Of a DNA stretch of 64,000 nucleotides, positions 38,950 to 58,752 are shown piece by piece. The DNA lies in assembly GCA_045586505.1 (NCBI GenBank), contig JAZNAL010000013.1:49804-113803 (forward strand), in the 5' to 3' direction. How positions within the stretch are numbered: the first letter of the stretch is position 1; every line of letters starts with the position of its first letter. This stretch comes from Candidatus Flemingiibacterium sp. (lineage in GTDB: Bacteria > Bacillota > Clostridia > Oscillospirales > CAG-272). The translations under genes were made by a program, and so were the position numbers. The notes beneath the pieces are model-generated. The model had not been told where the DNA came from, ran no database searches, and worked only from the letters and a program-made list of their open reading frames with translations.

Positions 38950-41900
38950 TGAAAAAAGATTTAATAATCCAAAAGACAGCACCTTGTAAAGCAGGTAAGA
39001 GAGTATTATCTGCGATTATGGCATTGGCAATGCTATGCACAATGATGTGCGGAATAACCGTTCCTGTAACGGCAACAAGCTATGAATTACTCAATCCTAT
39101 TACGGGAACTGTACAAGGTGCTGGTTATGACGAAACCGCGGGACATTACGGCATCGATTTGTATCCGTACAATTACGGTGATCCAGTATATGCAGTTGCA
39201 TCGGGAACAATTATGTATTCTTGTCCGAGAAATCACACGAAAGAATATCAATCCGGTGACGATTGCTGTACCGTAAAGATTATTCTTGACGAACCGATTA
39301 CATACAACGGCACAACATATGTGTGTGCATTCTATACACATATGTCCGCGCTTGTATATGACATTTACTGCGGTTACAAGGCAGCATGTGTAGAGGAATA
39401 TAACGCAGGGTTGCGTACAGATGCACTTCCTACCGAATCCGTTCACGTAGAAGCAGGCGACCTTATTGGATATGTCGGAAAAGGCAACGGTGCGACACAT
39501 CTTCATTTTTCCTTTGAAGCATCCGAGGCCGATGGATACGCTATGATGCCGAATAGTGAGTATTATGACGTATTCGAGTGGTGCTATAATGATAGTATTA
39601 CTGCTGGCGGCACGACAAGTGTATCGAACAATGTTGCTTCTGCATACTCAACGGGTATGACATTGACTCAGCTTCAAGCCAAATTCCCAGAGGGGAAATA
39701 TTGGAATGGAGGAAATGCTGATGGTTATACTTCCTATGCATGTACATGTCATGGTCAAGGAATATGTATTGCAGGAACGTCTCCATGCACTTGTAATCAC
39801 TTTCAAGGTGGTACGCAATGCAATGGATTCGCAAGGAAATTAGCGTATGATGCTTATGGTTCGCATTTGAGCACCTGGCAAACAACATCATCATCTAGTT
39901 ACGTGGATTCGCTCAAACCGGGAGATGTAGTATATAACGATTCGCCACACTGGTTTATGGTTATTTCGGTTAGCTCGGATTCGGTTACTGTAGGTGAATG
40001 CAACTGGGGAAGCAGATGTGTAATTAAATGGAGTAGAACAGTAAAAAAATCAACGATAAAAGGGTATGATGGATTAAATATTTTTATTGCTCCTTATTCA
40101 TTGACTAGTGGTTCTTCAACAAGTGTTCATACACATACATATTCCATAACTGAATATGAAGCAGCACATCCTCATAAGGCATATATTAAGTGCTCCTGTG
40201 GGGAGTTTGGTGGCTATACAGGAGCAACAAAGTATGTGTCTAGTTGTTCATCTTGTAGCGATACTTGCACTTGCTCCTCAAGTTACGCAGGAACATATAC
40301 ATGCATTACTACCAATTATCCTCTGACAATTCGTTCAGGACATGGAACAAGCTATGATGCAATTGGATCTATTCCTTCAGGTGCGTCAGTTACCGTTACA
40401 AGAGCTAACGGAAGTTGGGCTCACGTTACATATAATGGTGTAAGTGGATATGCTTCAATGGAATATTTGGCAAAGCCATATTCTACTTCAAGTGCATATC
40501 CTGTACCTTTTAAATGTTATACACTTTCTGATGACAATCATGCAGCAGACGCATTTGATGCTCCAAATGGTAATCATATTGGATATATTTACGGAACGGA
40601 TTATTGTACTGTAAAGGAGATATACTCAAACGGTTGGTGCTTGGTAAACGTACCGTGGGATAGCGGAACTAAGGATGTGTATACATATACGGGAAACTTT
40701 TTTAATACCTCTTTTACTCCTGTTATAGATGTTGTAGAATCATCGGGAAACACCTATATACGATACAATACATCAACTAGATTGGGAAATGTTGATGCTG
40801 GTGATAAAGTAACAATTGTAGATAGGTATGGGGTTCAAGTTCAGGCGATATATCCACACACCGATGGAACGTATCGCTGTGCTTGGATAAACGCATATCA
40901 TTTTGATCATACGCATACTCCAGGTGCTGCAGCGACTTGTACATCTCCACAAGTGTGTACAACTTGTGATGCGATAATCGCTGGTGTTACAAGCCACACA
41001 CCCGGTGCTGCTGCAACCTGTACTTCTAACCAAACTTGCACAGTTTGCGGAGTGATTTTGAATACGCAGACTGCACATACCCCCGGTGCTGCAGCCACTT
41101 GTACGACTGTTCAAAAGTGTACGGTTTGTGGAATTATACTTGCAGGAACTATAGAACATAGTTACACTGCTGGCGACTACACTGATCCTACCCATCCGCA
41201 TACTATTTACAATACTTGTGATTGTGGAGCAATGTCTGATTCGGGCTATTATGCGAAAGTTTTAAGTTGCACTGAATGTTATCCTACCCCTACAATATCG
41301 GGTATCACATACAGCCCGTCAACCGTAAAGGTGGGTGATACAGTAACATTTACTTTGAATGCTACCGGAGGTACAGAACACTGTATTTGTATCGGCGATG
41401 GAACCGATGAAATATTCAAGTCGCTGACAAGCTCTTGTACATATCAATTCACAAAAGCCGGTACCTATTACATTTACGGATGGGTAAGAAACGCAAGCGG
41501 AACAAAATATCCCGATACTGTTACCCTTGTTGTTGAAGATAATATTGTATCCGTAAACAGTGTATCTCTGAATAAGACAAGTGCAACCATTGATGTAGGC
41601 GATACACTGAACCTGACAGCGACTGTAGCCCCTTCAAATGCAACGAATAAGAATATTACTTGGAATTCCTCTAACACGAGCATCGCTTCTGTTTCAAACG
41701 GTGTTGTTACAGCAAAGTCGGCAGGAACTACAACGATAACCGCAACAACAGTGGATGCTTCAAAGACTGCTACCTGCATAGTCATCGTATCTGCACCGGA
41801 AGAACCGATAAATCCAAATGCCGCAGCAATAGTAGTAAATGATATTACTACAAGAGCAGGCGAAACATTTGATGTAACAGTAGATGTAGCAAATAATCCC

Positions 41901-42431
41901 GGTATGTGCTTCCTTCAGGTAACTCTTGAATATGATGAATCGGTGTTAACGCTGAAAGGTGCCTCCAATGGTTCTGTACTCTCAACTTTTGAAAATGGCG
42001 TAAACTTGCAATGGAGTGCAGATGCAGATACCTCAAAAAACGGCACTCTTGTTACTTTGACATTTGAAGTGAATGAAGATGCAGAGGCAGGAGAATACAC
42101 GGTAAACACAATTTTCCGTGAAGCGTACGATTCGGATCTGAATGATGTTGTCTTTACTGTCGCAGCCGGAACGATTACTGTCGCAGACTTTATCTACGGT
42201 GATGCTAACGGTGATGGTGAAGTAACTGGAAAGGATGCAGTGCTGCTTCGTAAATACATGGTGAATTACAATTACGATACAGGGACATCTTCTGTTGCGG
42301 TTTCCCCCGGAGCGGATGCCAATGGCGACGGTGAAGTAACTGGAAAGGACGCAGTACTGCTTCGCAAATACATGGTGAACTATAACTATGATACCGGAAC
42401 ATCATCAGTCGTTCTCGGTCCACAGCAGTAA
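38946..42431 (+). CDS. secreted multidomain peptidoglycan hydrolase: M23 peptidase + CHAP/NlpC-P60-like + SH3b + Cys-repeat + Big_2 + cohesin + dockerin
   Basis: Signal peptide. M23 motifs HYGIDL (HxxxD) and HLHFSF (HxH). CHAP-like QCNGFARKL ... PGDVVYNDSPHWFMVISV..GECNWG. SH3b (YPLTIRSGHGTSYDAIGSIPSGASVTV..WAHVTYNGVSGYA). Big_2 (VNSVSLNK..ITWNSSNTSIASV). Cohesin-like AGETFDVTVDVANNPGMCFLQVTLEYDESVLTL. Two dockerin EF-hand repeats DANGDGEVTGKDAVLLRKYMV. Confidence 0.8.
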   Translation: MMKKDLIIQKTAPCKAGKRVLSAIMALAMLCTMMCGITVPVTATSYELLNPITGTVQGAGYDETAGHYGIDLYPYNYGDPVYAVASGTIMYSCPRNHTKEYQSGDDCCTVKIILDEPITYNGTTYVCAFYTHMSALVYDIYCGYKAACVEEYNAGLRTDALPTESVHVEAGDLIGYVGKGNGATHLHFSFEASEADGYAMMPNSEYYDVFEWCYNDSITAGGTTSVSNNVASAYSTGMTLTQLQAKFPEGKYWNGGNADGYTSYACTCHGQGICIAGTSPCTCNHFQGGTQCNGFARKLAYDAYGSHLSTWQTTSSSSYVDSLKPGDVVYNDSPHWFMVISVSSDSVTVGECNWGSRCVIKWSRTVKKSTIKGYDGLNIFIAPYSLTSGSSTSVHTHTYSITEYEAAHPHKAYIKCSCGEFGGYTGATKYVSSCSSCSDTCTCSSSYAGTYTCITTNYPLTIRSGHGTSYDAIGSIPSGASVTVTRANGSWAHVTYNGVSGYASMEYLAKPYSTSSAYPVPFKCYTLSDDNHAADAFDAPNGNHIGYIYGTDYCTVKEIYSNGWCLVNVPWDSGTKDVYTYTGNFFNTSFTPVIDVVESSGNTYIRYNTSTRLGNVDAGDKVTIVDRYGVQVQAIYPHTDGTYRCAWINAYHFDHTHTPGAAATCTSPQVCTTCDAIIAGVTSHTPGAAATCTSNQTCTVCGVILNTQTAHTPGAAATCTTVQKCTVCGIILAGTIEHSYTAGDYTDPTHPHTIYNTCDCGAMSDSGYYAKVLSCTECYPTPTISGITYSPSTVKVGDTVTFTLNATGGTEHCICIGDGTDEIFKSLTSSCTYQFTKAGTYYIYGWVRNASGTKYPDTVTLVVEDNIVSVNSVSLNKTSATIDVGDTLNLTATVAPSNATNKNITWNSSNTSIASVSNGVVTAKSAGTTTITATTVDASKTATCIVIVSAPEEPINPNAAAIVVNDITTRAGETFDVTVDVANNPGMCFLQVTLEYDESVLTLKGASNGSVLSTFENGVNLQWSADADTSKNGTLVTLTFEVNEDAEAGEYTVNTIFREAYDSDLNDVVFTVAAGTITVADFIYGDANGDGEVTGKDAVLLRKYMVNYNYDTGTSSVAVSPGADANGDGEVTGKDAVLLRKYMVNYNYDTGTSSVVLGPQQ
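40914..41156 (+). repeat. three tandem 81-bp coding repeats (27-aa HTPGAAATCT..C..C units)
   Basis: Repeat units start at 40914, 40995 and 41076. Each encodes HTPGAAATCTxxQxCTxCxxI. Confidence 0.85.
42201..42410 (+). repeat. tandem duplicated dockerin segments (114-bp period)
   Basis: DANGDGEVTGKDAVLLRKYMVNYNYDTGTSSV is encoded twice, starting at 42201 and 42315. Confidence 0.85.
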
Positions 42432-42473
42432 TTCACATTTGGTTTAATAAAATACGAAAGAGGAAATATTACG

Positions 42474-45400
42474 ATGAAAAGATTTTGGTCATCAGTTTTG
42501 ATCTTTTTGATGGTGTTTAGCACCATTGTTATACCAGTAGAAGTAAGTGCGGCAGATGCACTTATGATAAGTGCCGACACACAATCTGCAGAAGCTGGAG
42601 AAACTGTCACAATTACACTGTCAGCTTCAAACAATCCTGGTCTGTCATTTTTGCAAGTGACGCTCCAGTATGACACATCTGTATTAACTCTCGAAAGTGC
42701 CACAAATGGAAACGTATTTTCTACCTTTGAAAAAGGCGTAAATCTTCAATGGAGTTCGGACGAAGATTCTACAAATAACGGAACACTCGCAACATTAAAA
42801 TTTAAAGTTACTGAAAATGCGGCTGTGGGGAGTTATGCCGTAAATGCAATCTTTCGCGAAGCATACGATTCGGATATCAATGATGTTGCCGTAGTCGTTA
42901 ATCCTGGTGCGGTAATCGTTACATCTGAACTTGTAGGCAAACAAACTGTAGCCGTTACCGCTCCTGTTAAAGGTGCAGTTCCGCAGGCTACAATCGCCGC
43001 TGGAAGCGGATACACAGGAACAATCGCTTGGGAAGGAAATCCCACAAAGTTTGCAGCGGATACTGTTTATGTCGCAAACATTACACTCACCGCGGCAGAT
43101 TGGTACGTTTTTGCTCCAACCGCAACCGGTAGTGTCAGCGGCGCAACTGTTACGAATAACTCTGTTTCAAGTGACGGAAGCACTCTGACATTCAAGGCAA
43201 CATTCCCGAATACCGCAGGTAAAGATACTCCTGCTTGTACCGCACCTGCGAATGTAACAGCAACCTATGGTCAGAAGCTCTCCGATATTACACTTACCAA
43301 TCCCGCAGGTAATACCACAGGCACTTGGACTTGGGCAGCTCCTACGACCTCTGTCGGAAATGTCGGAACAAAGACCTTCAAGGCAACATTTACACCAACT
43401 AATACAAACGATTATGTAGCTGTTGAGAATATCGATGTATCCGTTACGGTAAAGCCCAAGCCAATTACCGTTACTGTCGATAACATTGCCGATCAGCAGT
43501 ATACCGGTAGTCAGATCAAGCCTACAGTTACAGTAAAGGGCGATGGCAAGACTCTCGTTCTTAACACTGATTACACTGTCGAGTACGGCACAAACAAAAA
43601 CGTTGGTGCAACTGGCGGTTCTGTAACCGTTAAAGCAAAATCCGGCAGTAACTATACTTTCAGCAACACCACAGAGAACTTCAATATTGTTGCCCAAGCA
43701 GGTCAGGTTACAATCAGTGGAAATCTTAATGTAACTTATCCTAACACTGTTCCCAACGCAACGATTGATAAGCATGGCAGTGACGGCAGCGTAACCGTAT
43801 ACTACTACACCAACGAAGCCTGCACCAGCGGTAGGACAACTACCAAGCCTACCAATACAGGCAACTATTGGGCAAAAGCTGAAATGGCAGCCGGAACTAA
43901 CTATGGCTCTGCTGTAAGTAATGTCCTCGCATTTACTATTTCCCGTGCAAGCATAACACCTAGTGTTTCTATTGCAAATTGGACTTATCTCGGCAACGCA
44001 AGTACTCCATCCGTTACAGGCAACACCGGCAACGGCACTGTAACCTATCAGTACAAGGCTAAGGACGCTAACGATAATACATACACTGCAACGGTTCCCA
44101 CTAAAGCAGGTGATTACACCATTAAGGCTACTGTGGCACAGAGCTCGAACTATAACGGTGCAACTGCAACAGCAGATTTCAAGATCAACCCCAAGAATAT
44201 CTCCGAGGTGACGATTGACGCAATTGCTGATCAGACCTATACCGGCAATGCAATCACTCCCAAGCCTTCTGTTAAGGATGGCATCACTCCGCTCGTTCTC
44301 GACACTGATTTTACATACAGTTATGAGAATAATACCAATGTAAGTACTACCGCAACCGTTAAGGTAGTCGGTAAAGGTAACTACACCGGCACTGCAAGCA
44401 AAACCTTTACTATCATTCGCAAAGATCTTTCCATTACAGTAAGCATAACAGGATGGACTGTTGGCGGTACACCTAACGCTCCTGCTGTTACAGGTAATCT
44501 CGGCAACGGTGCTGTAACTTATCAGTACAAGGTTAAGGGTGCAGCAGATAGCACATATTCTGCTACAGTTCCGACAGCTGTAGGCAACTACACAGTAAAG
44601 GCGACCGTAGCACAGACTGCAAATTATAACGGCGCTACCGCAACAACCGATTTTGCTATCAGCACAAAATCGGCACAGAACATTACCGCTGACAATGTAA
44701 CAGTTACCTACGGCGACTCCGGAAAGAAAGTTTCCGGTACAACCAACGGTAACGGAACAATCAGCTATGCTGTAAAGAGCGGTTCCGATGTTGTAGAGGT
44801 CAACAGCACGACCGGTGCACTGACCATCAAGAAGGTTGGTACGGCTACTATCACTGTTACTGCATCTGAAACAACTTCTCATGCAGCAGCTACAAAGGAC
44901 ATTACCGTAACCGTCAACCCCAAGAAGATTACCGCACCTGCGGCTGACACCACTGTTTATACCTATAACGGAAGCGAACAGACCTACAAGATCACAGCAA
45001 ATGATGCTTATACCGTAACAGGTAACAAGCAGACTGCGGCTAATGAAACAGGTTACACTGTAACCGTAGCTCTCAAAGATAAGGTGAACTATCAGTGGAG
45101 TGATGGTTCCACTGAAGATCAGACATACACCTTCATCATAAAGAAGGCAAGTGTTACTGCACCGGCAGCTAACAATACGACTTTCGCATATACCGGAAAA
45201 GAGCAGACCTACTCTCTTACTGCAAATGATGCTTATACCATCACCGGGAACAAGCAGACTGCGGCTAACGAAACCGGCTACACCGTAACAGTGGCTCTTA
45301 AGGATAAGGTAAACCGTCAGTGGAGCGATGGCACTACCGATGACAAAACCTACACCTTCATTATTAAGAAAGCAACTATTACAATTACCGCAAAGAACAA

Positions 45401-46460
45401 GAGTGCATATACTGGAAATACTGCGCCTACCCTCGGTGATAGCGATTATACAGTAACCGGACTTGTAAACGGCGAGACACTGAAAACAAAGCCCACCATC
45501 GCTTATGAAACTACACCGGATATGAGCAAGGCTGGTACAACTAATATCCTTGTTTCCGATGCTGTAGCTCCCGATGGCAGCAACTACAATGATATCGTAT
45601 ATATCAGCGGTACATTGACAATAGCGAAAGATGCCGATGAATATGAGTGGTTGTGGTATTACCTCATGGTACTCCAGAGCCAGAAATTCGATGTTACGGC
45701 AACCGCAACCGCAGGAGGCGAAATTGATCCTGCCGGTGTGAGCAAGGTACAGTATTCCAAGAGCATTACCTATACCATCACTCCCGATGCCGGCTATGCA
45801 ATCAAGTCTGTTCTCGTAGACGGCGAGGATGTTGGCTCTGCCAGCGAATACACCTTCAAGAACGTTACCAAGAAACATACTATTCACGCTGTCTTTGAAC
45901 AAGTCAATCCCTACACCGACATAAAAGCTGACGATTGGTTCTATGATGATGTGCTTTATGTAACTTCTAAGGGCCTGATGGAAGGTACAGGTAACGGCAA
46001 GTTCTCTCCCGAAATTTCCACCGACCGCGCGATGCTCGTAACGGTTCTGTGGAGACTGGAAGGCTCTCCTGTTGTTGACAATCCTGTTGATTTCCTCGAC
46101 GTTGCAGACGGACTGTGGTACTCTGATGCTATCGATTGGGCTTCCGCAAACGGCATCGTAAACGGTTACGGTGATGGCAGATTCGGCCCCACCGACACAA
46201 TTACCCGTGAACAGATGGCAACCATCATGTGGCGTTATGCAAAGTACAAGGGATACGATGTATCGGTCGGCGAGAACACCGACATTCTCTCCTACACCGA
46301 CGCTGAAACGGTAAGCGATTGGGCAATTCCTGCAATGCAGTGGGCGTGCAGCAAAGATATGATTAAGGGTATTGTAAATAACATTCTTGATCCTGCCGGC
46401 GACGCAACCCGAGCACAAATTGCAGCAATTCTGTATCGTTTCTGCCAGACAATCAAATAA
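42474..46460 (+). CDS. cell-wall-anchored cohesin protein: N-terminal cohesin + many Ig-like/MBG-type repeats + C-terminal triple SLH
   Basis: Signal peptide. The cohesin-like domain is clearly paralogous to the one in the upstream gene (AGETVTITLSASNNPGLSFLQVTLQYDTSVLTL). Repeats of the YTG..I.P.V.V..G...L...DYTV.Y type are present. The C-terminal SLH repeats read YTDIKADDWFYDDVLYV.., FLDVADGLWYSDAIDWA.., YTDAETVSDWAIPAMQWA... Confidence 0.8.
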   Translation: MKRFWSSVLIFLMVFSTIVIPVEVSAADALMISADTQSAEAGETVTITLSASNNPGLSFLQVTLQYDTSVLTLESATNGNVFSTFEKGVNLQWSSDEDSTNNGTLATLKFKVTENAAVGSYAVNAIFREAYDSDINDVAVVVNPGAVIVTSELVGKQTVAVTAPVKGAVPQATIAAGSGYTGTIAWEGNPTKFAADTVYVANITLTAADWYVFAPTATGSVSGATVTNNSVSSDGSTLTFKATFPNTAGKDTPACTAPANVTATYGQKLSDITLTNPAGNTTGTWTWAAPTTSVGNVGTKTFKATFTPTNTNDYVAVENIDVSVTVKPKPITVTVDNIADQQYTGSQIKPTVTVKGDGKTLVLNTDYTVEYGTNKNVGATGGSVTVKAKSGSNYTFSNTTENFNIVAQAGQVTISGNLNVTYPNTVPNATIDKHGSDGSVTVYYYTNEACTSGRTTTKPTNTGNYWAKAEMAAGTNYGSAVSNVLAFTISRASITPSVSIANWTYLGNASTPSVTGNTGNGTVTYQYKAKDANDNTYTATVPTKAGDYTIKATVAQSSNYNGATATADFKINPKNISEVTIDAIADQTYTGNAITPKPSVKDGITPLVLDTDFTYSYENNTNVSTTATVKVVGKGNYTGTASKTFTIIRKDLSITVSITGWTVGGTPNAPAVTGNLGNGAVTYQYKVKGAADSTYSATVPTAVGNYTVKATVAQTANYNGATATTDFAISTKSAQNITADNVTVTYGDSGKKVSGTTNGNGTISYAVKSGSDVVEVNSTTGALTIKKVGTATITVTASETTSHAAATKDITVTVNPKKITAPAADTTVYTYNGSEQTYKITANDAYTVTGNKQTAANETGYTVTVALKDKVNYQWSDGSTEDQTYTFIIKKASVTAPAANNTTFAYTGKEQTYSLTANDAYTITGNKQTAANETGYTVTVALKDKVNRQWSDGTTDDKTYTFIIKKATITITAKNKSAYTGNTAPTLGDSDYTVTGLVNGETLKTKPTIAYETTPDMSKAGTTNILVSDAVAPDGSNYNDIVYISGTLTIAKDADEYEWLWYYLMVLQSQKFDVTATATAGGEIDPAGVSKVQYSKSITYTITPDAGYAIKSVLVDGEDVGSASEYTFKNVTKKHTIHAVFEQVNPYTDIKADDWFYDDVLYVTSKGLMEGTGNGKFSPEISTDRAMLVTVLWRLEGSPVVDNPVDFLDVADGLWYSDAIDWASANGIVNGYGDGRFGPTDTITREQMATIMWRYAKYKGYDVSVGENTDILSYTDAETVSDWAIPAMQWACSKDMIKGIVNNILDPAGDATRAQIAAILYRFCQTIK

Positions 46461-46469
46461 TTCATTTAT

Positions 46470-46510
46470 AGAAGAAACCACACTCTACAAAATAGAGTGT
46501 GGTTTCTTCT
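46470..46510 (+). terminator. intrinsic terminator of the surface-protein operon
   Basis: Hairpin AGAAGAAACCACACTCT/AGAGTGTGGTTTCTTCT. Confidence 0.75.
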
Positions 46511-46658
46511 ATATGGAGACATTTTTTAAGTTTTATTCAACTCAATAGTTATAATTCTTAACACTAATTATAATTCACAAAGAATGTGTAGATTGCTGGA
46601 AAATTATGTGATATAATACACTTTAGTAAAGATATTTGGTGCCATGGGAGAAATAATT

Positions 46659-46802
46659 ATGATGCTAGATATATCTGATACGCAATTTAAAAGAATTTTC
46701 TCTAACCCTAAATTTTATCTTCCTATTCGCTGGGATAATAAAGACTTTTTATATACATTAAAGGCGTTAATGTGGATGGGTGTGTTGTTTGTGTTATTGT
46801 AA
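46659..46802 (+). CDS. possible 47-aa small protein with hydrophobic C-terminus (below the ORF-track cutoff)
   Basis: GGGAGA RBS. MMLDISDTQFKRIFSNPKFYLPIRWDNKDFLYTLKALMWMGVLFVLL. Confidence 0.25.
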   Translation: MMLDISDTQFKRIFSNPKFYLPIRWDNKDFLYTLKALMWMGVLFVLL

Positions 46803-46872
46803 TTAGAGACAACTCAAGTAATTGATTATTTGGATACGTTTTACTTTATGTGTCGATTTTTACATATTAATG

Positions 46873-46901
46873 TTGCAAAATATAATGTGTTGTGATATAA
46901 T
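46873..46901 (+). promoter_or_regulatory. promoter of the 46943-49277 two-gene module
   Basis: TTGCAA-17 nt-TATAAT, 42 nt upstream of the ATG, which has a GGGAGG RBS. Confidence 0.6.
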
Positions 46902-46942
46902 AATAATTGAAAAAGAAAAAAGTATAAAAGGGAGGATGTATT

Positions 46943-47566
46943 ATGGTAAATACAGTAGTGGATATTAGTGAATTTTACCAGACAATCAATGATATTGAAA
47001 CTTTAGGATTTGACACACATTTGTTTATCAACGCAATTAACAAAATATATAATTCGCCTATTTTTATATTAATAAATGATAAAACTGAAGATAAGGTTTT
47101 ACCATCTGATGAATTAAATTCATTGCGAATTTTGGGTACACCGGTCTATGTATCTGTTACGCAAATTAAAGACAATTTAAAAAGTGATTTTTTCAATATG
47201 GTACTACGTATTTTTTTAAATAGTATTTCTAAACAAAATAGAGAAATGGTTGTTTCTTTGCTTGAACAGTTGTTGCCTCAAATAATTGCAAGCATACACT
47301 ACATTACTAAAGAAGAAAGATGTATGTATGCTATTGCAATAGAATTTTATTTAAGAGATAGTCAAAAGTTTCATAGCCCCGAGGAATTCAAACCCAAGCT
47401 GTTAGAAAATTATTGTGATAACCTTACCGTAAACTGCTCACATAGAAAGAACACAAAATGTTTTATTAGTATGGAGCGAGTGTATAATTCGTTAAATAGT
47501 TTAGAAAGCAAGCATATATTAGAGAGGAACAAGGAAACAAATGGGTACAAATACATACGATGGTAA
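46943..47566 (+). CDS. hypothetical protein, component A of a two-gene module
   Basis: 207-aa AT-rich ORF with a strong RBS. No recognisable catalytic motif. The C-terminal VYNSLNSLESKHILERNKETNGYKYIRW looks winged-helix-like. It overlaps the next gene by 26 nt. Confidence 0.6.
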   Translation: MVNTVVDISEFYQTINDIETLGFDTHLFINAINKIYNSPIFILINDKTEDKVLPSDELNSLRILGTPVYVSVTQIKDNLKSDFFNMVLRIFLNSISKQNREMVVSLLEQLLPQIIASIHYITKEERCMYAIAIEFYLRDSQKFHSPEEFKPKLLENYCDNLTVNCSHRKNTKCFISMERVYNSLNSLESKHILERNKETNGYKYIRW

Positions 47567-49277
47567 TGAAGTAATGATAAACAATAACAATGATGACTTG
47601 TTTTCCACTGCTTCCTTTGAGCCAGAGGCAATTGAAATTTTAACTGCGGATGATGTATATGGTGCAACTGCTGATATTTTAGAGAAAGAATTTGAGAGTC
47701 TTTATGAAATAAAGCAAAACTTGGAAACATCAGGAGCTACAAAATCAGCAGTTATATTTCGAGATATTCTATGGAAAATACTTTTTAGGAATAATGAAAA
47801 TATCCCCACTCCTTTTATTATTTTAAAAGAGTCGTTTCATATTAACAGAGTGTATTATGATAGTTATAGTTCTCATCTTTCTGCCAAGCATTTTCCACGC
47901 AAGCAATATTGCAAGAGACTATTCTTTTTAAGTTGTCCAATATACTCTGATGACCTTTTTGATAAAAGTGAAAACGAGTTGTGTGATTTACTAATAGGTT
48001 CTTGTGTTATAAGACCGTCTCTTGAAAACGAGAACATTATTGGGCAAACGCTTTTGAATCCAAAATGTTTTGAAAAATGGAAAAACGAATATATATGCAC
48101 AGCTTCATACAAATTAACTATGTTCGGTAAACGTGTAAGTCTCGAAGCATTTCCTTATATGATGCAAGATGGGGAAGTTATTACTTGTGCAGAAACAACT
48201 TTAATTCATTTGTTGGATTATTTTAGTAATCGTTATAGTTCATACAGATCCGTAGTTCCCAGTGATTTGTTTGAAATTGAAAAAGAGCTATCTTTTGAAC
48301 GTATTATTCCAAGTAAAGGGATGACTTATAAAACAGTTTCACATCTTTTGACCAAGTTAAACTTTCATCCTAAATTATATGGTTTTGATAATAATGATAC
48401 AATTGTAGATAAAAGAACTATGCATCATTATATTGATTCGGCGATCCCAGTCGCAGTAAGTTTGAATCCAGGGAATGCCGAACAATCCCACTCAATTGTT
48501 GCTATAGGAATATCAAAAACTTTATTGCCGATAAATAAGGTGTCCTCTAAATTAAAGCCACAAAATGGATTGTATTTTCTAGATATTTCGGATTTGTATT
48601 ATGAATATATAGTTATGAATGATTCTTCTGCACCTTATACAAAGATATCTATGGTTACAGATGGTTGCAAAGAAAAGAGATTTAAATTCCAAATAGAAAA
48701 TACAGTTGGAAATTTTGAAATTTCATCAATAATTGCTCCTTTGGCAAAAAGAATGTATCTAGACGATTTTAAGGCTTCGGAAATTGCATTAAGTTTTATT
48801 TCAAATGATAATGTAGGAATAAAAAAGGCAATTGAAATGGCTGGTATTGATGAATATAGCCAGTTGGGATTGACTAAAAATGATCCTATATTGTATCGCT
48901 TGTTTTTGGTAAGAGCCGGTAGTTTTAGAAGAAAACGATCGTTTAACTTAAAGAAAAAAACCTTGCGATGGACGGTATATAGTAGTATTCCTTTGCCAAA
49001 ATTTGTTTGGGTATGTGAATTGTATAGCAAGTCTTCGTTGGAAAAAGGGAAAGCAATTGGAGAAGTGGTTATTGATGCTACTGCGAGTGAAATGGATGGA
49101 ATTTCAAGTGCAATAATACTAAATTATCCAGGTTGCTTTTCCTATCGTACTCCGGAAGAATCATTTGATATTTTTGTAAAACGATATGAATCCAATGATC
49201 AACCGACCGATTGGTCGCTAATTGAACCATATATACATTTTCAAGAACCCCAAGAGGAATATTTAGAAAATAATTAA
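47541..49277 (+). CDS. hypothetical protein with central papain-fold (C39-like) cysteine peptidase signature, component B
   Basis: 578 aa. FPYMMQDGEVITCAETTLIHLLDYF shows a Q..C nucleophile context as in C39/papain-like peptidases. A downstream AEQSHSIVAIG is a candidate catalytic His. The N- and C-terminal regions are unassigned. Confidence 0.5.
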   Translation: MGTNTYDGNEVMINNNNDDLFSTASFEPEAIEILTADDVYGATADILEKEFESLYEIKQNLETSGATKSAVIFRDILWKILFRNNENIPTPFIILKESFHINRVYYDSYSSHLSAKHFPRKQYCKRLFFLSCPIYSDDLFDKSENELCDLLIGSCVIRPSLENENIIGQTLLNPKCFEKWKNEYICTASYKLTMFGKRVSLEAFPYMMQDGEVITCAETTLIHLLDYFSNRYSSYRSVVPSDLFEIEKELSFERIIPSKGMTYKTVSHLLTKLNFHPKLYGFDNNDTIVDKRTMHHYIDSAIPVAVSLNPGNAEQSHSIVAIGISKTLLPINKVSSKLKPQNGLYFLDISDLYYEYIVMNDSSAPYTKISMVTDGCKEKRFKFQIENTVGNFEISSIIAPLAKRMYLDDFKASEIALSFISNDNVGIKKAIEMAGIDEYSQLGLTKNDPILYRLFLVRAGSFRRKRSFNLKKKTLRWTVYSSIPLPKFVWVCELYSKSSLEKGKAIGEVVIDATASEMDGISSAIILNYPGCFSYRTPEESFDIFVKRYESNDQPTDWSLIEPYIHFQEPQEEYLENN

Positions 49278-49368
49278 AAAATAGCGATTTACTATTGACT
49301 AATAATCAAATTTGTGATATACTATATTAGCTCGGAAGTTACGGAGACGATAGAAAGAGGAAATAATT

Positions 49369-49548
49369 ATGTTTTTAAAACCTAAAAAGGTTTGTATTGA
49401 GAAAAATTTTGCACCAAGAGTGCATTCTGTAAAAATTACCCAGCAGCATATTGACGAATTGAATAGAGAAATTCAGAAAAATGTTATGGAAAAAGAAATC
49501 GAACGAGAAAAAGGCTTAGAAATTGCTGTTCGTTGTCGTATGAGATGA
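49369..49548 (+). CDS. stand-alone 59-aa basic/coiled-coil small protein (below the ORF-track cutoff)
   Basis: It has its own TTGACT-17-(TGa)TATACT promoter at 49295-49323, a GAAAGAGGA RBS and a terminator hairpin at 49602-49645. Sequence: MFLKPKKVCIEKNFAPRVHSVKITQQHIDELNREIQKNVMEKEIEREKGLEIAVRCRMR. Confidence 0.45.
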   Translation: MFLKPKKVCIEKNFAPRVHSVKITQQHIDELNREIQKNVMEKEIEREKGLEIAVRCRMR

Positions 49549-49730
49549 TTCTGATTGCCTTTTATGTCAATTACGGTCACTATGTAGTTGCAAATATTGT
49601 AAAATACCACTCGAGAACGCTATGTCTTGAGTGGTATTTGTTTTAAAATGAGTATTATCTCCACAACAAATATAATAAAAAACAATCAAATTGAATTTGC
49701 ATATCAAATATGATTAGTATGCAGATATCC

Positions 49731-49759
49731 TTGACTTTCTGCATATAATATAGTATAAT
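49731..49759 (+). promoter_or_regulatory. promoter of the Fic operon with overlapping operator-like repeats
   Basis: TTGACT-17 nt-TATAAT. The 8-10 nt element TATGCAGA(TA) occurs at 49718-49727 (direct), 49738-49745 (inverted, within the spacer) and 49762-49771 (direct). Confidence 0.65.
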
Positions 49760-49784: not shown

Positions 49785-50831
49785 ATGAGAAAGTTTGATT
49801 ATTCGTTTTTAAATAACGGTTTGTTACCTGCTAATCTAATAAACTTGACATCAAGTATTGCATCTCTTAAAACAATGGCTGGGGTACGTAAAGAAGAGTA
49901 TGCAAAGATTTTCACTGAGCTTGAAGCAGTGGCAAAAGTGCAGTCTGTTAAAAGCTCTAATGCCATTGAGGGCATCGTTACAAGTGATGAGCGTATTGCC
50001 GCTATCGTTAATCAGGATAGTGCCCCGCTCAATCATACTGAAGGTGACATTGCCGGATACCGTGATGCACTTAATGCTATTCACTTAAATCACGATAACC
50101 TTGATTTGCGTGAATCTGACATTTTGAGACTGCATCAAACAATGATGCAGATAGCAGGTTACGAATATGGCGGTCAATATAAGACCGGAGATAATTATAT
50201 TATTGAGGAAGATAAGGACGGAAACAGAAACGTAAGATTTAGACCAACTCCCGCTAATGAAGTAAAGGAAGCAATGGAGCAGTTGGAGCTTGCTTATATG
50301 GAAGCACGAAACGATGCTAACATCAATCAGCTTTTGCTTATTCCTTGTGTTATTCTTGACTTTTTGTGTATTCACCCGTTCAGAGATGGCAATGGAAGAA
50401 TGTCAAGACTCATATCATTGCTATTGCTTTACAAAAACGGATATGACGCAGGAAAATATGTTTCCTTTGAAGAGCAGATAAATAATTACAAAGGCTTTTA
50501 TTATGAAGCCCTCAGAGAATCTTCAATAGGTTGGCACGAGAATCAAAACACATACGTTCCTTTTATTGAAAATTTCTTGTCCACTCTTTATATGTGCTAC
50601 AAAGAACTTGATAAGCGTTTTGCGGTTGTAAATGGTAAAAAGATTACAAAGACAGCAAGAATTGAAGCAACCGTTTTGAATAGCCTTGTACCCATATCAA
50701 AGGCGGAGATTTGTGACGTTTTGCCAGATGTAAGCCCTACAACCGTTGAAGCGATTTTAAGCGTTATGGTAAAGAAAGGGCAGATTAAAAAGATTGGACA
50801 AGCAAGGATGACGAGGTATATTAAAGTTTAA
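49785..50831 (+). CDS. Fic-family protein (AMPylase-type) with N-terminal inhibitory-helix motif and C-terminal wHTH
   Basis: Fic motif HPFRDGNGRMSRL. The N-terminal SSNAIEGI fits the (S/T)xxxE(G/N) auto-inhibition motif. The C-terminus is wHTH-like. Confidence 0.85.
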   Translation: MRKFDYSFLNNGLLPANLINLTSSIASLKTMAGVRKEEYAKIFTELEAVAKVQSVKSSNAIEGIVTSDERIAAIVNQDSAPLNHTEGDIAGYRDALNAIHLNHDNLDLRESDILRLHQTMMQIAGYEYGGQYKTGDNYIIEEDKDGNRNVRFRPTPANEVKEAMEQLELAYMEARNDANINQLLLIPCVILDFLCIHPFRDGNGRMSRLISLLLLYKNGYDAGKYVSFEEQINNYKGFYYEALRESSIGWHENQNTYVPFIENFLSTLYMCYKELDKRFAVVNGKKITKTARIEATVLNSLVPISKAEICDVLPDVSPTTVEAILSVMVKKGQIKKIGQARMTRYIKV

Positions 50832-50848: not shown

Positions 50849-52411
50849 ATGAAAGAGGTTATATTGCGTGAATATCAGGTAAATGCACTAAATTCCATTG
50901 AACAAGCCTTGAAACAAGGGCGAAAGCGTATAGCTATAGAAATGCCTGTTGGATGTGGAAACAGTGTTATTTTATTAAAACTATTGGAAATCCTGTCTGA
51001 ATTTAATAGGGGCAAAACTCTTGTTGTTACTCATACTCTTGAGGCGAAAAAATATGTTCTGCAATCATTATTAAAAAACAATAACGATTCTGACCAAACT
51101 GTTGTAGAAACTCAGCAGAAGCTTATAAAGCTTTCTGAAAAAGATACAATTGAATATCAGTTTGTTATTTTTTATGATGTTGTAATAACAAAAAGTTTAA
51201 GCGCAGTATTTGATAACAAAGACATAACAATTATTGCCCTCCTTAAAGACAATTCTATTGGGATGCAAGAGCGCTTTACCTCTGAGGATGTAGTATTTTC
51301 ATATAGTTATAAGCAGGCTGTTGACGATGGATACATTACTCCTGCAATGGATGCAAAAGCTTTTGAACCTGCGGTTGAAGCATTTAGCAAACAATTGTTA
51401 GAGCAATTTGGTTATACTCAAGTTAATTGCGATAAAAGCATACAGGACTTCGGCTGGGATTTGATAGTAAAAAACAATGATCAAACATTATTGGTAGAAT
51501 GTAAAGCATACAAAAGCCAAGTGGTTTCTCCGTTTGCGGCAGATTCTATGTTAAAAAGTGTTGTATTGCGAAAAACAAAACAAAATCTTCAGCAGAACGA
51601 TTTAGTTCTGTTAATAGTTTTAAGTAGTATTCCCAGTTTTCGTAAAAAAGAAATTTATGAAAGATTTGGAACCATTATTTGGGATATTCAAAATTTAGTA
51701 TTTTACAGCAAACAAGATCCTGATTTGATTAAACAATTATCCCAAATTACATATTTCCCTATTGACTATATTGAGGGACAGCCTTCCGAAGAAGCAGAAG
51801 CTGCCGGATTAAGCTATGTTGGTGTTGAAGACAAAATTGTTTCTGAAGCGGAAAAAGAAACAATTGAAGTTGAGGAACTTATTCAACAGTTAGAGGAGTG
51901 TAAAGCAGGAAAGAAGTATTCACGAGAATATGAAAGCATCTGCGAAAGGATATTAAGTAGCCTTTTTGCATCAAATTATTTCAATAGGTTAACAAACCAA
52001 CACAAAACAAGCGATGAGCATTTCAGAATGGATATGATAGGTTCTTTAAAGATAAGTCAAAAGAATGAGGAAAGTATGCACCCTCTGTGGAAAATGTTTG
52101 TACAGCATTATAATTCTCATTTTGTTGTTTTTGAGTTTAAAAACTACTCAAAAGAAATCGATCAGAATTTGATTTATATTACCGAAAAATATCTATTTGA
52201 TGCAGCACTAAGAAATGTGGCTATAATTATATCACGAAAAGGTTTTTCAAAATCTGCGAAGTTTGCGGCAGAAGGATGTTTGAAAGAACACGGAAAACTT
52301 ATCCTTGATATTACCGACAAAGACTTAATACAAATGTTGGAACATAGTGATGAAGCCGCAGATCATTTACTGATGAAATTAGAAGAATTTTTAATGCGTA
52401 TAAGCAAATAA
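50849..52411 (+). CDS. three-domain protein: degenerate helicase N-lobe + Mrr-like PD-(D/E)xK nuclease + second PD-(D/E)xK-like domain
   Basis: LREYQ followed by PVGCGNS replaces a PTGxGKT Walker A, so the Lys is missing. GWDLIVKNNDQTLLVECKAYK is a D..ExK motif of Mrr type. RMDMIG...FVVFEFKNY is a second D..ExK-like motif. Confidence 0.55.
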   Translation: MKEVILREYQVNALNSIEQALKQGRKRIAIEMPVGCGNSVILLKLLEILSEFNRGKTLVVTHTLEAKKYVLQSLLKNNNDSDQTVVETQQKLIKLSEKDTIEYQFVIFYDVVITKSLSAVFDNKDITIIALLKDNSIGMQERFTSEDVVFSYSYKQAVDDGYITPAMDAKAFEPAVEAFSKQLLEQFGYTQVNCDKSIQDFGWDLIVKNNDQTLLVECKAYKSQVVSPFAADSMLKSVVLRKTKQNLQQNDLVLLIVLSSIPSFRKKEIYERFGTIIWDIQNLVFYSKQDPDLIKQLSQITYFPIDYIEGQPSEEAEAAGLSYVGVEDKIVSEAEKETIEVEELIQQLEECKAGKKYSREYESICERILSSLFASNYFNRLTNQHKTSDEHFRMDMIGSLKISQKNEESMHPLWKMFVQHYNSHFVVFEFKNYSKEIDQNLIYITEKYLFDAALRNVAIIISRKGFSKSAKFAAEGCLKEHGKLILDITDKDLIQMLEHSDEAADHLLMKLEEFLMRISK

Positions 52412-52453
52412 CAGAAATATGTAGAAAGTGATTGATTGTTAAAGGATATAGAC

Positions 52454-53185
52454 ATGAACAATGTAGAAGATTTTGAAAACACTAAACTTTCGCTAATTAA
52501 TTCGAAACAGTTAGAAGAGATCAAAAACAATCCAGCCACTAAGGCAACCATATTGTCAGTAATTAAAGCTATCCCTGTGTTGGGAGAATTAATTGACGGA
52601 ACGATTGATGCATCTTTAAACAAATTTCAGCAAAGTAAGAGAAACGAGTTGCTGGATATTGTTTTAAGCACATCCGAGACGATTACTACAGAAATGGTAA
52701 ATGATGTAGAATTTATAATAAATTTTGCAAAGACATTAGAAGCTGTAAATAGGCTTGGCTCTAATGATAAGGTGAAATATTTTGCAAACATTATTAAAAA
52801 CGGATATTTATCAGGGCAAAGAATAACAGATGGCGAATTCGAGGAATACCTATACGCCTTATCAACGATGTCTTACAGACAAATAAATATTCTTATTGAT
52901 TTGTATATTTATGAGCAGAACAATGTTGCAGAGGACAATACCGAAGATAAGACAAAGAAAAATAACAAGCTTGCACCAAGACATGATACATGGAGCACAT
53001 TTGTTAACAGTGTGGCTGAAAAATATAGTATTACACTAGAAGATGTAATTAGTATACTGACAAGCATATCTAAAACAGGTTTTTGTAGTGAGGTAACCGG
53101 GGCATATTTTGGTTACACGGGAGGAGTCTTTTACATCACCAGTAGTTGCAAAAAATTTATAGAGATGATTTCGGATAGAATGTGA
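52454..53185 (+). CDS. hypothetical protein
   Basis: 243-aa ORF (AAAGGA RBS, ATG at 52454) with no recognisable motif, tightly packed between the nuclease and SIR2-like genes. Confidence 0.55.
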   Translation: MNNVEDFENTKLSLINSKQLEEIKNNPATKATILSVIKAIPVLGELIDGTIDASLNKFQQSKRNELLDIVLSTSETITTEMVNDVEFIINFAKTLEAVNRLGSNDKVKYFANIIKNGYLSGQRITDGEFEEYLYALSTMSYRQINILIDLYIYEQNNVAEDNTEDKTKKNNKLAPRHDTWSTFVNSVAEKYSITLEDVISILTSISKTGFCSEVTGAYFGYTGGVFYITSSCKKFIEMISDRM

Positions 53186-53191: not shown

Positions 53192-54456
53192 ATGGCAAAA
53201 GGATTATTGTTGGGGGCAGGTTTTTCTTTTGATTTGGGAATGCCGTTGGCATCTGAGTTTTCAGATACATTATTCGGCTTTTTAAATTCTTTTAAAATTG
53301 AGAATTTAATTAACAATATGAGAGGTCATAGACCATACAGTAATGACAGAACGCTCTGTGATGTCACACTCAACCGGTTACTTGAGATATACAATGGATT
53401 TCTTAATTCTGAGAATAAAAATTATGAAGAATTATTCAGGATTGTTGAGAGTTTGCAGGTGAACAGTAGAGAAGCACAAGAAACGGTTAGTTATTTTCTT
53501 TCAAAGATAAGAAATATCATAAACGAATTGTTCCTTATATATCAGAAAAACACATATTTTTACTATATTCTTAACAGAGATAAATACAAGTGGTTGATAG
53601 ATCAATTTGAAAAAGAAGAATTATGGGTATTTACACTGAATCACGATGTGTTAATCGAAATGCTGTGTATTGATTATAAAATACCATTAAATGAGGGGTA
53701 TTCGCGAACCATGCAAATTCCTATGTCAAATATAAATATGGAAGAGTGCATTGACTTTGGAAAAATTGATGCAACAGAGAAAGATGTTGATAAGTTAAAC
53801 TACCTCAAAAATACAAAAGGAATAAACATTTTAAAAATACATGGTGGATTAAACGAGTTTTTTCAGGGGGATGAAAAAACAGGCAGACATCGTATGATAT
53901 TTGATTACCATAAATTTGAAAGTTCTTTAAACTATTTGAATGCATTGGAGTCATTTATTCATGCTCCGCACTATTACATAAATGACAGACCTCCCAATAT
54001 AGAAAGTGAAATATGTGTAAGTGATTTTGACGGTGTTTTGCAATTTATGCACCTTCGATTTTAACCGGAAGCAAAAAGTATCACAAAACAATATCCCAAA
54101 ATCAGCGTGAAGAAAAAATCGAGCTGTTTTCATCTGGATTGACCAAAATAGATGAGCTGTATATTATAGGGTACAGTTTTGCTGACAAACATATAAATAA
54201 CAGAATATCACATGCTATGCATCTGAATGATAAATTAAAAGTACTTGTAGTAAGTCCTACAGCTCAAAAGCAGGAACTGTTCGAACCATTTGATTATAAT
54301 GCAAGAGTACGTTATTGTAATACTTCATTTCCTGTTTGGGCAGATTATGAAAAGAAAGGTGAATGGGATTCTGAATTCAGTAAAACGATAAGTGAATTGA
54401 CTGATACTGTCAGAAAGCCGTTGATTGCATCTGTAAAAGAAAGCATTATTAAATGA
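53192..54456 (+). pseudogene. SIR2-like (SIR2_2 type) NADase-family gene interrupted by a frameshift
   Basis: LLLGAGFSFDLGMP (GAGxS), FTLNHDVLIE and KIHGG lie in frame 2, which stops at 54062-54064. The expected continuation APSILTGSKKY...LYIIGYSFADKHIN is in frame 1, open from 54031. T4 runs at 54036-54039 and 54059-54062 lie in the overlap. Confidence 0.6.
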
Positions 54457-54559: not shown

Positions 54560-54634
54560 TGGTGACCCGTACGGGAATCGAACCCATGTTTCCGCCTTGA
54601 GAGGGCGGCGTCTTAGCCGCTTGACCAACAGGCC
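54560..54634 (-). tRNA. tRNA-Glu (anticodon CUC)
   Basis: rc = GGCCTGTTGGTCAAGCGGCTAAGACGCCGCCCTCTCAAGGCGGAAACATGGGTTCGATTCCCGTACGGGTCACCA. It forms a cloverleaf with anticodon loop CUCUCAA and an encoded CCA. It has its own TTGACA-17-TATAAT promoter (rc 54681-54653). Confidence 0.85.
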
Positions 54635-54879: not shown

Positions 54880-54953
54880 TGGCTGGGGATGAGGGGTTCG
54901 AACCCCCACAAACAGAGTCAGAGTCTGTCGTGCTACCGTTACACAAATCCCCA
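54880..54953 (-). tRNA. tRNA-Gln (anticodon CUG)
   Basis: rc = TGGGGATTTGTGTAACGGTAGCACGACAGACTCTGACTCTGTTTGTGGGGGTTCGAACCCCTCATCCCCAGCCA. The acceptor stem TGGGGAT/ATCCCCA is perfect and the anticodon loop is CUCUGAC. A TTGACA-17-(TGg)TATAAT promoter lies upstream on the minus strand. A terminator hairpin at 54841-54876 lies downstream. Confidence 0.85.
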
Positions 54954-58256: not shown

Positions 58257-58277
58257 AATATGAGGAGATAAAAAGTC

Positions 58278-58748: not shown

Positions 58749-58752
58749 GAAA

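Follow-up and report, generated by a model that had tools for sequence, protein, structure and literature searches.

A mobile three-gene cassette with a predicted papain-like cysteine peptidase and a small partner protein in a Candidatus Flemingiibacterium defence islet

Introduction

A stretch of 64,000 nucleotides (nt) of the Candidatus Flemingiibacterium sp. genome (contig JAZNAL010000013.1, positions 49,804 to 113,803; this whole stretch is called the window, and all coordinates are given in its numbering) contains two overlapping open reading frames (ORFs), which encode proteins of 207 and 578 amino acids (aa). A first-pass annotation, made from the sequence alone, described them as an orphan two-gene module that encodes a papain-like cysteine-peptidase protein in a defence islet. 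Is the larger protein indeed such a peptidase, which genes belong together with it, and what could they do? We find that positions 46870-49650 are a self-contained, horizontally mobile cassette of three genes and not two, as a 59-aa gene downstream of the pair had been missed and the unit extends past position 49277. The 578-aa protein is predicted to be a cysteine peptidase with a papain-fold core. Its near-universal partner is the newly recognised small protein, and the 207-aa gene is a lineage-specific accessory. We infer from this arrangement a protease-based toxin-antitoxin or abortive-infection module, in which a cytoplasmic protease would be restrained by, or act through, the small partner, and we give this explanation a probability of roughly 45%. 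The cassette has the following elements:

46943-47566, + strand: gene 1, ORF of the 207-aa protein, with a GGGAGG ribosome-binding site before the ATG
47541-49277, + strand: gene 2, ORF of the 578-aa predicted papain-like peptidase (codon coordinates verified)
49369-49548, + strand: gene 3, ORF of the 59-aa basic helical protein, with an AAGAGG ribosome-binding site; also called as a gene by NCBI
46873-46901, + strand: candidate operon promoter, TTGCAA-17 nt-TG-extended TATAAT, from a consensus scan and conservation in the related loci L091 and L014
49295-49323, + strand: internal promoter of gene 3, TTGACT-17 nt-TGATATACT, from a scan and conservation across loci
49602-49645, + strand: intrinsic terminator at the cassette end, a 15-bp stem followed by UUUGUUUU, from RNA folding

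A predicted papain-like cysteine peptidase

The AlphaFold2 (AF2) model of the 578-aa protein, calculated on the family alignment, has a predicted local distance difference test score (pLDDT) of 90.9 and a predicted template modelling score (pTM) of 0.90, and it indicates one compact globule of three domains. The domains of the model and the residues of interest are located as follows:

About aa 20-203: N-domain, without a library match
About aa 204-400: papain-like cysteine-peptidase core
About aa 401-560: C-domain, without a library match
48165-48167, + strand: codon of Gln209, predicted to be catalytic
48186-48188, + strand: codon of Cys216, predicted to be catalytic
48489-48491, + strand: codon of His317, predicted to be catalytic
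48621-48623, + strand: codon of Asp361, predicted to be catalytic
49074-49082, + strand: invariant D512-A-T514 of the C-domain

Q209-x6-C216 is located in MMQDGEVITCAETT and H317 lies within SHSIVAIG, the two motifs that the first-pass annotation had singled out as reminiscent of C39 and papain-fold peptidases; both are present. In the AF2 model, Cys216 opens a helix (residues 216-231) and His317 opens a strand (residues 317-324), which is the arrangement found in papain. Q209, C216, H317 and D361 are all invariant in an alignment of 50 sequences that reaches down to 17% identity. In 136 diverse representatives, drawn from the 150 best matches listed in the profile search described below, C216, H317 and D361 show no exception, and Q209 is kept in at least 90%. 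When tested on its conserved residues, the family has the Gln-Cys-His-Asp order of clan CA peptidases.

A Foldseek comparison of the model with the PDB found staphopains B, A and C with a probability of about 1.0. The best matches, which are of the staphopain and streptopain/IdeS type, were 1x9y, 1pxv, 1y4h, 1cv8 and 8oig, with a probability of about 1.0, and 2au1. Further matches were IdeS/Mac-1, the C39 domain of PCAT1, AvrRpt2 (C70) and the papain-like toxins 9l5u and 8ssm. The probabilities for staphopains and IdeS were in the range of 0.94-1.0. Among 50 relatives of the protein, Peptidase_C39_2 (PF13529) weakly matched two, with a best E-value (E) of 7.6e-5, and Peptidase_C10 matched one. 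These fold and profile matches all fall in 'cluster I' as defined for papain-like enzymes (PMC10318531). The 578-aa protein itself gave no match in scans of Pfam (E <= 1), NCBIfam, PADLOC and PHROG, a sequence search of the PDB returned nothing significant, and a Foldseek comparison of its model with viral structures returned nothing informative.

The AF2 model, the Foldseek matches to peptidases, the invariant Cys, His and Asp residues with the near-invariant Gln, and the weak C39_2 and C10 matches in relatives together argue for a papain-fold cysteine-peptidase core. This assignment, which had originally been made from the sequence alone, is borne out by the model, the fold comparison and the catalytic residues; peptidase activity is predicted.

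The regions of about 200 aa on either side of the core, in which no motif had been recognised in the first reading, indeed match no library profile. They are conserved nevertheless. In the 136 representatives, the invariant or near-invariant residues are G153, P159, E97, D102, R106, R126 and R169 in the N-domain and P486, F488, W490, E493 and D512-A-T514 in the C-domain. The N-domain motif GxxVxRPxxxxIIGRxLL (47997-48065, aa 153-175) resembles the C-terminal GTVLVGPTPVNIIGRNLL of HIV and other retroviral aspartic proteases. This retropepsin link, the one thing that the PDB sequence search turned up, is probably due to chance, since an E of 0.013 was reached only for tethered dimers, single chains gave values of at least 0.69, and DTG/DSG is missing.

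A hydropathy check found no signal peptide or transmembrane segment in any of the three cassette proteins. The 578-aa protein has no hydrophobic N-terminus and its maximum 19-aa hydropathy is 1.24. It is predicted to be soluble and cytoplasmic because it carries neither a signal peptide nor a transmembrane segment.

A small protein accompanies the peptidase

The 59-aa protein matches the profile of a Clostridial small-protein family, whose members are encoded beside Clostridial protease genes, with E = 6e-20. A member of the small-partner family was detectable in 71 of the 82 loci that had enough flanking sequence to be assessed. With the HMMER filters switched off, most of the remaining loci gave weak, position-supported matches, which include divergently transcribed upstream copies such as those in L006 and L020. 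Short-form protease genes, which are found in Bacteroidota and their relatives (see below), are followed immediately 3' by an ORF of 61-67 aa in 52 of 52 detected cases, with gaps that are typically between -11 and +12 nt. The Clostridial and Bacteroidota small families have bridging members in common, and hhalign aligned them over their full length with a probability of 87% and E = 4e-6.

The small partner is kept even where the arrangement of the genes is altered, as it lies upstream of the protease gene in L002 and is convergent with it in L031. As the pairing survives changes of both gene order and gene orientation, the comparison of these loci makes it very likely that the protease and the small partner work together. 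Across the protease family, the small protein is the near-universal companion, and the 207-aa gene is an accessory of one lineage.

Members of the small-protein family are basic, with a median net charge of +4, and have a helix-favouring composition. Their most conserved part is a helix-like segment formed by the C-terminal 25 or so residues, with the consensus ...vRReyq.Ke..Sq.sAa.vΦLtA-COOH in Bacteroidota and ...IRQNExERxASxEAAxK... in Clostridia. The protein of the window ends in ...AVRCRMR, and those of one Clostridial clade end in ...VGGK(F). Searches of Pfam and the PDB found no relatives of the small protein. A ribbon-helix-helix identity was also considered and gained no support.

Gene layout and transcription signals

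The first-pass annotation had proposed that the 207-aa and 578-aa ORFs overlap by 26 nt, are translationally coupled, share a TTGCAA-17-TATAAT promoter, and are extremely AT-rich in comparison with the host. The two ORFs and their 26-nt overlap were confirmed, and the same overlap is present in a relative with 80% identity. An AAGGAA Shine-Dalgarno sequence is located 6 nt 5' of the ATG of gene 2, inside the 3' end of gene 1, and translational coupling of gene 2 to gene 1 is therefore plausible. The GC content of the cassette genes is 0.29-0.32 as compared to 0.50-0.52 in the flanking host DNA, in full agreement with the described AT-richness.

The case of the promoter is more complicated. The sequence is present at 46873-46901. 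However, promoter-like matches are not enriched in the AT-rich cassette DNA (23 observed as compared to 21.2 expected from shuffles), and hence this match, which is not statistically significant, proves nothing when taken alone. The -35 element and the TGTGnTAnAAT of this promoter are nonetheless kept at the aligned position in L091 and L014, the surroundings of which have diverged. Such conservation in two related and otherwise diverged loci supports the operon promoter as real.

Gene 3 has a conserved promoter of its own. In an alignment of four otherwise diverged spacers between genes 2 and 3, the -35 and extended -10 elements of the internal promoter are invariant. A strict TTGACN-17-TGnTAnAnT motif, for which the background is about 2e-5 per nt, keeps the same distance in the window, L014, L001 and L023; in L091, the promoter was seen in the spacer alignment only and not by the strict motif scan. 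With a conserved promoter in this position, production of the small protein in the window's clade does not have to depend on that of the protease.

The terminator hairpin at the end of the cassette has a folding free energy of -21.1 kcal/mol and a z-score of -6.9, and none of 200 shuffled sequences folds as well. The DNA similarity between the window and its 80% relative (L091) spans 47108-49549, that is, from the interior of gene 1 to the exact stop codon of gene 3.

The 207-residue Clostridial partner

For the neighbourhood analysis, 80 genome loci and 3 viral loci were fetched, and 5,701 ORFs were called in them. An iterative hidden Markov model search of these ORFs found 24 members of the 207-aa family. 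All 24 lie directly 5' of a Clostridial long-form protease gene, with gaps of -44 to +57 nt. In the reciprocal test, homologs of the partner were retrieved independently (P0053 from 11 contigs and P0193 from 18 contigs), and the protease gene comes next after them in 29 of 29 contigs. The two genes therefore do co-occur elsewhere, as the two-gene proposal requires. A protein search for the family, which was limited by its word index, found 5 clusters, and a metagenome scan for further members found none.

One invariant and three near-invariant cysteines characterise the family, followed by a conserved LxxLxxKxIL...Y+F end:

47321-47323, + strand: codon of C127
47414-47416, + strand: codon of C158
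47435-47437, + strand: codon of C165
47459-47461, + strand: codon of C173

The N-terminal half of the protein is helical. Its AF2 model, which was built on a shallow alignment of 5 sequences, has a pLDDT of 55 and shows the order helix, helix, Cys-bearing beta-hairpin, helix, beta-hairpin. In this low-confidence model, such an order would suit a winged-helix domain into which a metal knuckle is inserted. The Foldseek comparison, which is unreliable at this pLDDT, gave no significant match (best E = 0.7). The weak matches were almost all winged-helix or PCI domains. Hence, the winged-helix-like end that had been suspected in this protein is compatible with our results and is not established by them. 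Scans of Pfam, PADLOC, NCBIfam and PHROG with the 207-aa protein gave no match. We infer that it is a regulator or an adaptor.

Size and distribution of the protease family

A first homology search with the 578-aa protein found 51 clusters, all unannotated. An exhaustive profile search then gave 5,525 metagenomic clusters (at 50% identity) with E <= 1e-3, of which 2,652 have E <= 1e-30. Nearly all of the best 150 listed matches (E <= 1e-133) span the full length of the protein. The term 'orphan' is thus apt only in so far as the family is unnamed: no public source names any of its members, and the literature that we searched holds no description of the family or of the pair.

A scan of 185,579 species genomes for the conserved motifs, confirmed by tblastn, found 162 stretches that encode a relative of the protease. 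The family occurs in Clostridia, Bacteroidota, Chlorobi and Ignavibacteria and, distantly, on plasmids of Proteobacteria. Its long form of 550-590 aa is found in Clostridia, and a short form of 480-520 aa in Bacteroidota, Chlorobi and Ignavibacteria. No fusion of either accessory protein to the protease (Rosetta stone) was found among about 190 members.

The family is rare in the phage, viral and plasmid collections that were searched. There was no member in 50,697 phage genomes, and 3 of 2.9 million viral contigs carry one. In 72,556 plasmid records, the window protein found no match and a Bacteroidota member found 3 distant ones, all annotated as 'hypothetical'. These plasmid-borne relatives, which have about 22-25% identity and are carried by conjugative plasmids, come from Mesorhizobium, Shewanella and Hymenobacter. 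ORFs of 52-60 aa are located 66-85 nt upstream of them (L092:5701-5883, L093:5621-5779 and L094:5581-5754). Their position is equivalent to that of a small partner, and homology to the small-partner family could not be demonstrated. The neighbours in L092-L094 include a multi-ubiquitin/ThiF system, AbiEi, a caspase-family protein and a TrlF-like ATPase.

A proposed mechanism

The layout of the cassette conforms to that of type II toxin-antitoxin loci: the genes are adjacent and co-inherited, one of them is small, and it is either coupled or preceded by its own conserved promoter. In the module that we propose, the protease would be a latent effector, i.e. the toxin. The small protein would bind to it as a cognate inhibitor, a pseudo-substrate or a labile antitoxin. 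In the window's clade, it would be made in excess from its own promoter, and in Bacteroidota it would be made stoichiometrically through translational coupling. The small protein would then be removed or out-competed upon phage infection or when the cassette is lost; in Clostridia, the signal may pass instead via the Cys4/winged-helix partner. The freed protease would cleave essential host or phage proteins, and the infection would be aborted.

That such a mode of action is biochemically feasible is shown by Cpe1. This papain-like protease acts as a poison in the bacterial cytoplasm, where it cleaves GyrB/ParE, and a protein encoded together with it neutralises it (PMC12136450). The surroundings of the relatives are also in agreement with it. 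Neighbours of their cassettes include Gabija with a dCTP deaminase, a type I restriction-modification system with a kinase, and a reverse transcriptase with an AAA ATPase. Defence and mobile families that recur in the flanks are GmrSD, MkoA, MADS, LeoA/BC, PDC-M71, PDC-S02, CapP, AbiLi, E1-E2-JAB, multi-ubiquitin and integrases. No neighbour was conserved among the 252 flanking genes that were scanned in about 50 loci, and such unconserved flanks fit a mobile cassette. The pattern is that of a self-contained accessory that often lands in defence islands and travels as one unit between defence-rich regions in bacteria of the gut and of the environment.

Several points weigh against this explanation. 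About 6 of the assessable loci lack any small partner, and no antitoxin-type DNA-binding fold is recognisable in the small protein. The putative interaction between the small protein and the protease is deduced from their co-inheritance. The roles could also be the other way round, the small protein being the toxin or the substrate, and the N- and C-domains, including the invariant D512-A-T514, could carry the real effector activity. Many of the flanking genes are housekeeping genes, and the association with defence is qualitative.

A more ambitious version of the proposal is that of a widespread anti-phage or abortive-infection system built on this clan CA family with its two new domains. Here, the small protein of about 60 aa would be a latch, decoy or pseudo-substrate, the loss or displacement of which at infection would unleash the protease, and the Cys4/winged-helix protein of Clostridia would be a sensor-adaptor. 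We consider this version tentative and rather doubtful.

Should the toxin-antitoxin or abortive-infection module prove true, bacterial immunity would gain a new family of proteases and a mini-regulator of a new type, and a new specific pair of a protease and its inhibitor would be available as well. If it fails, a large uncharted papain-like branch with two unmatched domains is left, and it is worth a structure. In either case, a family of about 5,500 clusters has been invisible to annotation libraries, so that genomes label its members 'hypothetical', and with the catalytic residues and the true gene module defined it is directly testable.

Alternative explanations

The small protein might not control the protease and might instead be its dedicated substrate or precursor, cleaved or trimmed at the C-terminus to an active peptide or a protein tag in the manner of double-glycine leaders or of ubiquitin/Pup-like trimming. 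The strict one-to-one pairing would be expected for such a couple. C39/C39_2 leader peptidases are among the closest relatives of the protease in both sequence and fold, the conservation of the small protein peaks in its C-terminal 25 or so residues with the hydrophobic tail ...SAAxVILTA, and the ...VGGK(F) end of one Clostridial clade resembles a GG cleavage site. However, the GG motif is missing from most small proteins, including that of the window, and there is neither a signal peptide nor a secretion context. The flank scans found no transporter, modification-enzyme or conjugation (E1/E2) gene conserved beside the pair, and a three-domain enzyme of 500 aa would be unusual for the processing of a precursor. 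Hence, we regard a substrate role as unlikely.

A cassette with the same toxin-antitoxin mechanics could also be an addiction module that is selected for the stabilisation of an island or plasmid and not for defence against phages. Its strongly atypical GC content, its location in variable regions beside recombinases, integrases, transposases and relaxases, and the distant relatives on conjugative plasmids are what one would expect of such a module. Its rarity on sequenced plasmids (0 matches and 3 distant ones in 72,556 records) speaks against this explanation, as do the chromosomal position of most loci and the many dedicated defence genes among the neighbours. Defence and addiction are not mutually exclusive, and as an explanation in its own right addiction is similarly improbable.

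The enzyme may not be a protease at all. The spacing between Gln and Cys is x6 here and x5 in papain. Conserved and unmatched domains, with the invariant polar residues E97, D102, R106, R126, R169, E493, D512 and T514, make up two thirds of the protein, and they could provide the real specificity or a second activity to a papain-fold enzyme that catalyses deamidation, transglutamination, acyl transfer or amide hydrolysis at its Cys-His-Asp site, with a small molecule or the partner protein as the substrate. The papain-like superfamily does contain acetyltransferases, deamidases and transglutaminases (PMC10318531). However, the best structural matches are all true peptidases, and the oxyanion-hole Gln is conserved alongside the triad, which is typical of clan CA peptidases. 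A non-proteolytic function thus appears quite improbable.

The least credible alternative is an interbacterial toxin-immunity pair as in Cpe1-Cpi1 or contact-dependent inhibition (CDI), in which the protease would be delivered as an effector against other bacteria and immunity would be conferred by the small protein: the order of the genes, toxin first and then the small gene, is that of effector-immunity loci, and the Foldseek matches include 9l5u, a papain-like toxin with its immunity protein, and 8ssm, a CDI toxin, but the 252 flanking genes of the roughly 50 loci contain no type VI or type VII secretion or CDI genes and no recognisable trafficking domains, the three-domain architecture is uniform in the 150 best representatives listed, without the domain shuffling of polymorphic toxins, and the pTM of 0.90 points to one compact globule.

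Comparison with known systems

The staphopain-staphostatin systems (MEROPS C47; scpAB and sspBC), together with streptopain and IdeS, provide the best fold matches to the core, with the same order of Gln, Cys, His and Asx. In the staphylococcal operons, a small gene that follows the protease gene encodes its specific cytoplasmic inhibitor, staphostatin. The likeness to this operon is one of layout only, with a small gene 3' of the protease gene. Staphopains are made as zymogens that carry a signal peptide and a propeptide and are secreted. The 578-aa protein, in contrast, is predicted to be cytoplasmic, has two extra conserved domains and belongs neither to PF05543 nor to any other Pfam family. 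The partners differ as well: staphostatins form beta-barrels of about 105-110 aa, and the small protein described here has 59-67 aa, is helical and basic, and has no homology to Pfam or PDB entries.

Cpe1-Cpi1 (PDB 9l5u) pairs a papain-like protease, a toxin that arrests growth by acting on bacterial proteins in the cytoplasm, with a co-encoded partner that neutralises it, and a similar relationship is proposed for the cassette. Cpe1 is the C-terminal toxin domain of effectors delivered by type VI secretion or CDI (PMC12136450). The cassette, in contrast, has no delivery context, a fixed three-domain architecture and an unrelated partner. The Foldseek match to the Cpe1-type structure is also weak, with E of 0.2-0.6 and a TM-score of about 0.6 on the target.

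The double-glycine leader peptidases of the Peptidase C39 and C39_2 families (PF03412 and PF13529) are similar in their membership in cluster I, in the fold match to the C39 domain of PCAT1 and in the small co-encoded protein as a possible substrate. They differ in that the window protein has no Pfam match (E <= 1) and no fusion to an ABC transporter, and that GG is missing in most partners. Among the flanking genes, ABC_tran occurs in 2 of 122 in the first set, and the families listed for the second set do not include it. The first-pass annotation had asked whether the pair might belong to a known bacteriocin-processing or prophage function. Neither protein could be assigned to one in the library, phage, plasmid and flank scans.

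Phage defences that contain proteases include Lit, the caspase-like and CHAT effectors of type III CRISPR and Thoeris-like systems, gasdermin-activating proteases, and Avs/NLR proteins with protease effectors. The cassette resembles them in its defence-island context and in the proposed logic of a latent protease. Unlike in those systems, no sensor NTPase, cyclase or CRISPR component is linked to it, and none of them is known to use the protease family or the partner of the cassette. PADLOC-DB v2 contains 0 families that match the 207-aa and 578-aa proteins at E <= 1.

Type II toxin-antitoxin loci of reverse order, such as mqsRA and higBA, have a separate promoter for the antitoxin. The cassette is like them in that the larger gene precedes the small one, which has a promoter of its own or is coupled, and in its patchy distribution with horizontal transfer. 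The type II toxins that are known have about 100 aa and are mostly RNases, kinases and acetyltransferases, and their antitoxins carry DNA-binding folds, whereas the putative toxin here is a predicted protease of 500-580 aa and the small protein has no recognisable DNA-binding domain. In its proposed mode of action, the cassette comes closest to toxin-antitoxin loci of reverse order or to abortive infection, with a protease as the effector. It represents a large uncatalogued clan CA family with two unmatched domains and a new mini-partner, which is not categorically new.

Genomic setting

The defence-islet setting noted in the first reading stands. The cassette opens an 8-kb stretch of 32% GC at 46.5-54.5 kb, which continues with defence-type genes up to two tRNA genes, and a further row of such genes follows at the GC content of the host:

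49731-49759, + strand: SoFic promoter, near-consensus TTGACT-17-TATAAT, from a scan
49785-50831, + strand: SoFic-type Fic protein (PADLOC SoFic, E = 2e-34), directly after the cassette terminator
50849-52411, + strand: 520-aa protein with an N-terminal ResIII helicase motif, an Mrr_cat/NERD-like nuclease domain and a C-terminal half without assignment, with no confident PADLOC system
52436-53185, + strand: 249-aa gene, directly upstream of the split SIR2 gene
53192-54064 (290 aa) and 54139-54456 (105 aa), + strand: SIR2-family defence gene split in two reading frames, the N- and C-terminal parts of PADLOC SIR2
54560-54634 and 54880-54953, - strand: tRNA-Glu(CUC) and tRNA-Gln(CUG), the right border of the low-GC islet
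55147-61044, + strand: TerB_N/TerB_C protein, BrxC/BrxD-family ATPase (E = 6e-155) and DEAD/ResIII helicase, a row at host-normal GC past the tRNAs

Judging from its domains, the 520-aa ResIII-Mrr protein may be an uncatalogued single-gene defence nuclease. The split SIR2 gene is probably a frameshifted pseudogene, and the row of TerB, BrxC/BrxD-type and helicase genes resembles another defence-type trio. No att-like direct repeat of a tRNA 3' end was found at the borders of the islet, and there is no integrase inside it.

On the left side of the cassette, a segment at 31648-38108 with 33-41% GC contains three genes of mobile elements or their regulation:

31648-33174, - strand: large serine recombinase
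33966-34589, - strand: helix-turn-helix protein of the XRE type
37221-38108, + strand: tyrosine integrase

Because of the recombinase, the XRE-type protein and the integrase in this low-GC segment, the stretch at 31-55 kb is considered to be a mosaic of mobile DNA.

Relatives of the cassette were observed in similarly mixed company. In the four metagenome contigs L095-L098 (e.g. L095:1614-3771 and 6679-8627), an 80%-related cassette is located within a compact islet of several defence systems. On one side of it lies a conserved trio of genes, for a 140-aa protein, for a 340-aa protein that has CxxC in its N-terminus as well as a hydrophobic stretch, and for a Ser/Thr kinase of 244 aa. A reverse transcriptase and an AAA_15/21 ATPase lie on the other side. 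In a Lachnospiraceae locus (L030:4502-6670), a 722-aa ORF fuses Prok-E2_A, ThiF (E1) and JAB and resembles a CBASS-type or ubiquitin-like conjugation regulator. It is located one gene upstream of a 227-aa ORF that directly precedes the protease gene. Its presence beside the cassette is probably a matter of co-location in an island; a relationship between the papain and deubiquitinase folds was noted.

Two very large surface proteins are encoded at 38928-46460 (+ strand), between the integrase and the cassette. One of them combines M23 peptidase, SH3, Big_2, cohesin and dockerin domains. In the second, C-terminal SLH domains are accompanied by an MBG repeat domain, a weak match that scores below the gathering threshold, and by an N-terminus that looks cohesin-like by eye, without a match to Pfam Cohesin. 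Their cellulosome-like wiring fits a host from Clostridia. Also of note is a 52-aa ORF at 46644-46802 (+ strand) with a hydrophobic C-terminus and no Pfam match, which lies between the terminator of the SLH gene (about 46478-46510) and the cassette. The promoter-like element that precedes this ORF (46593-46802 region) has the TGTGATATAAT core in common with the operon promoter.

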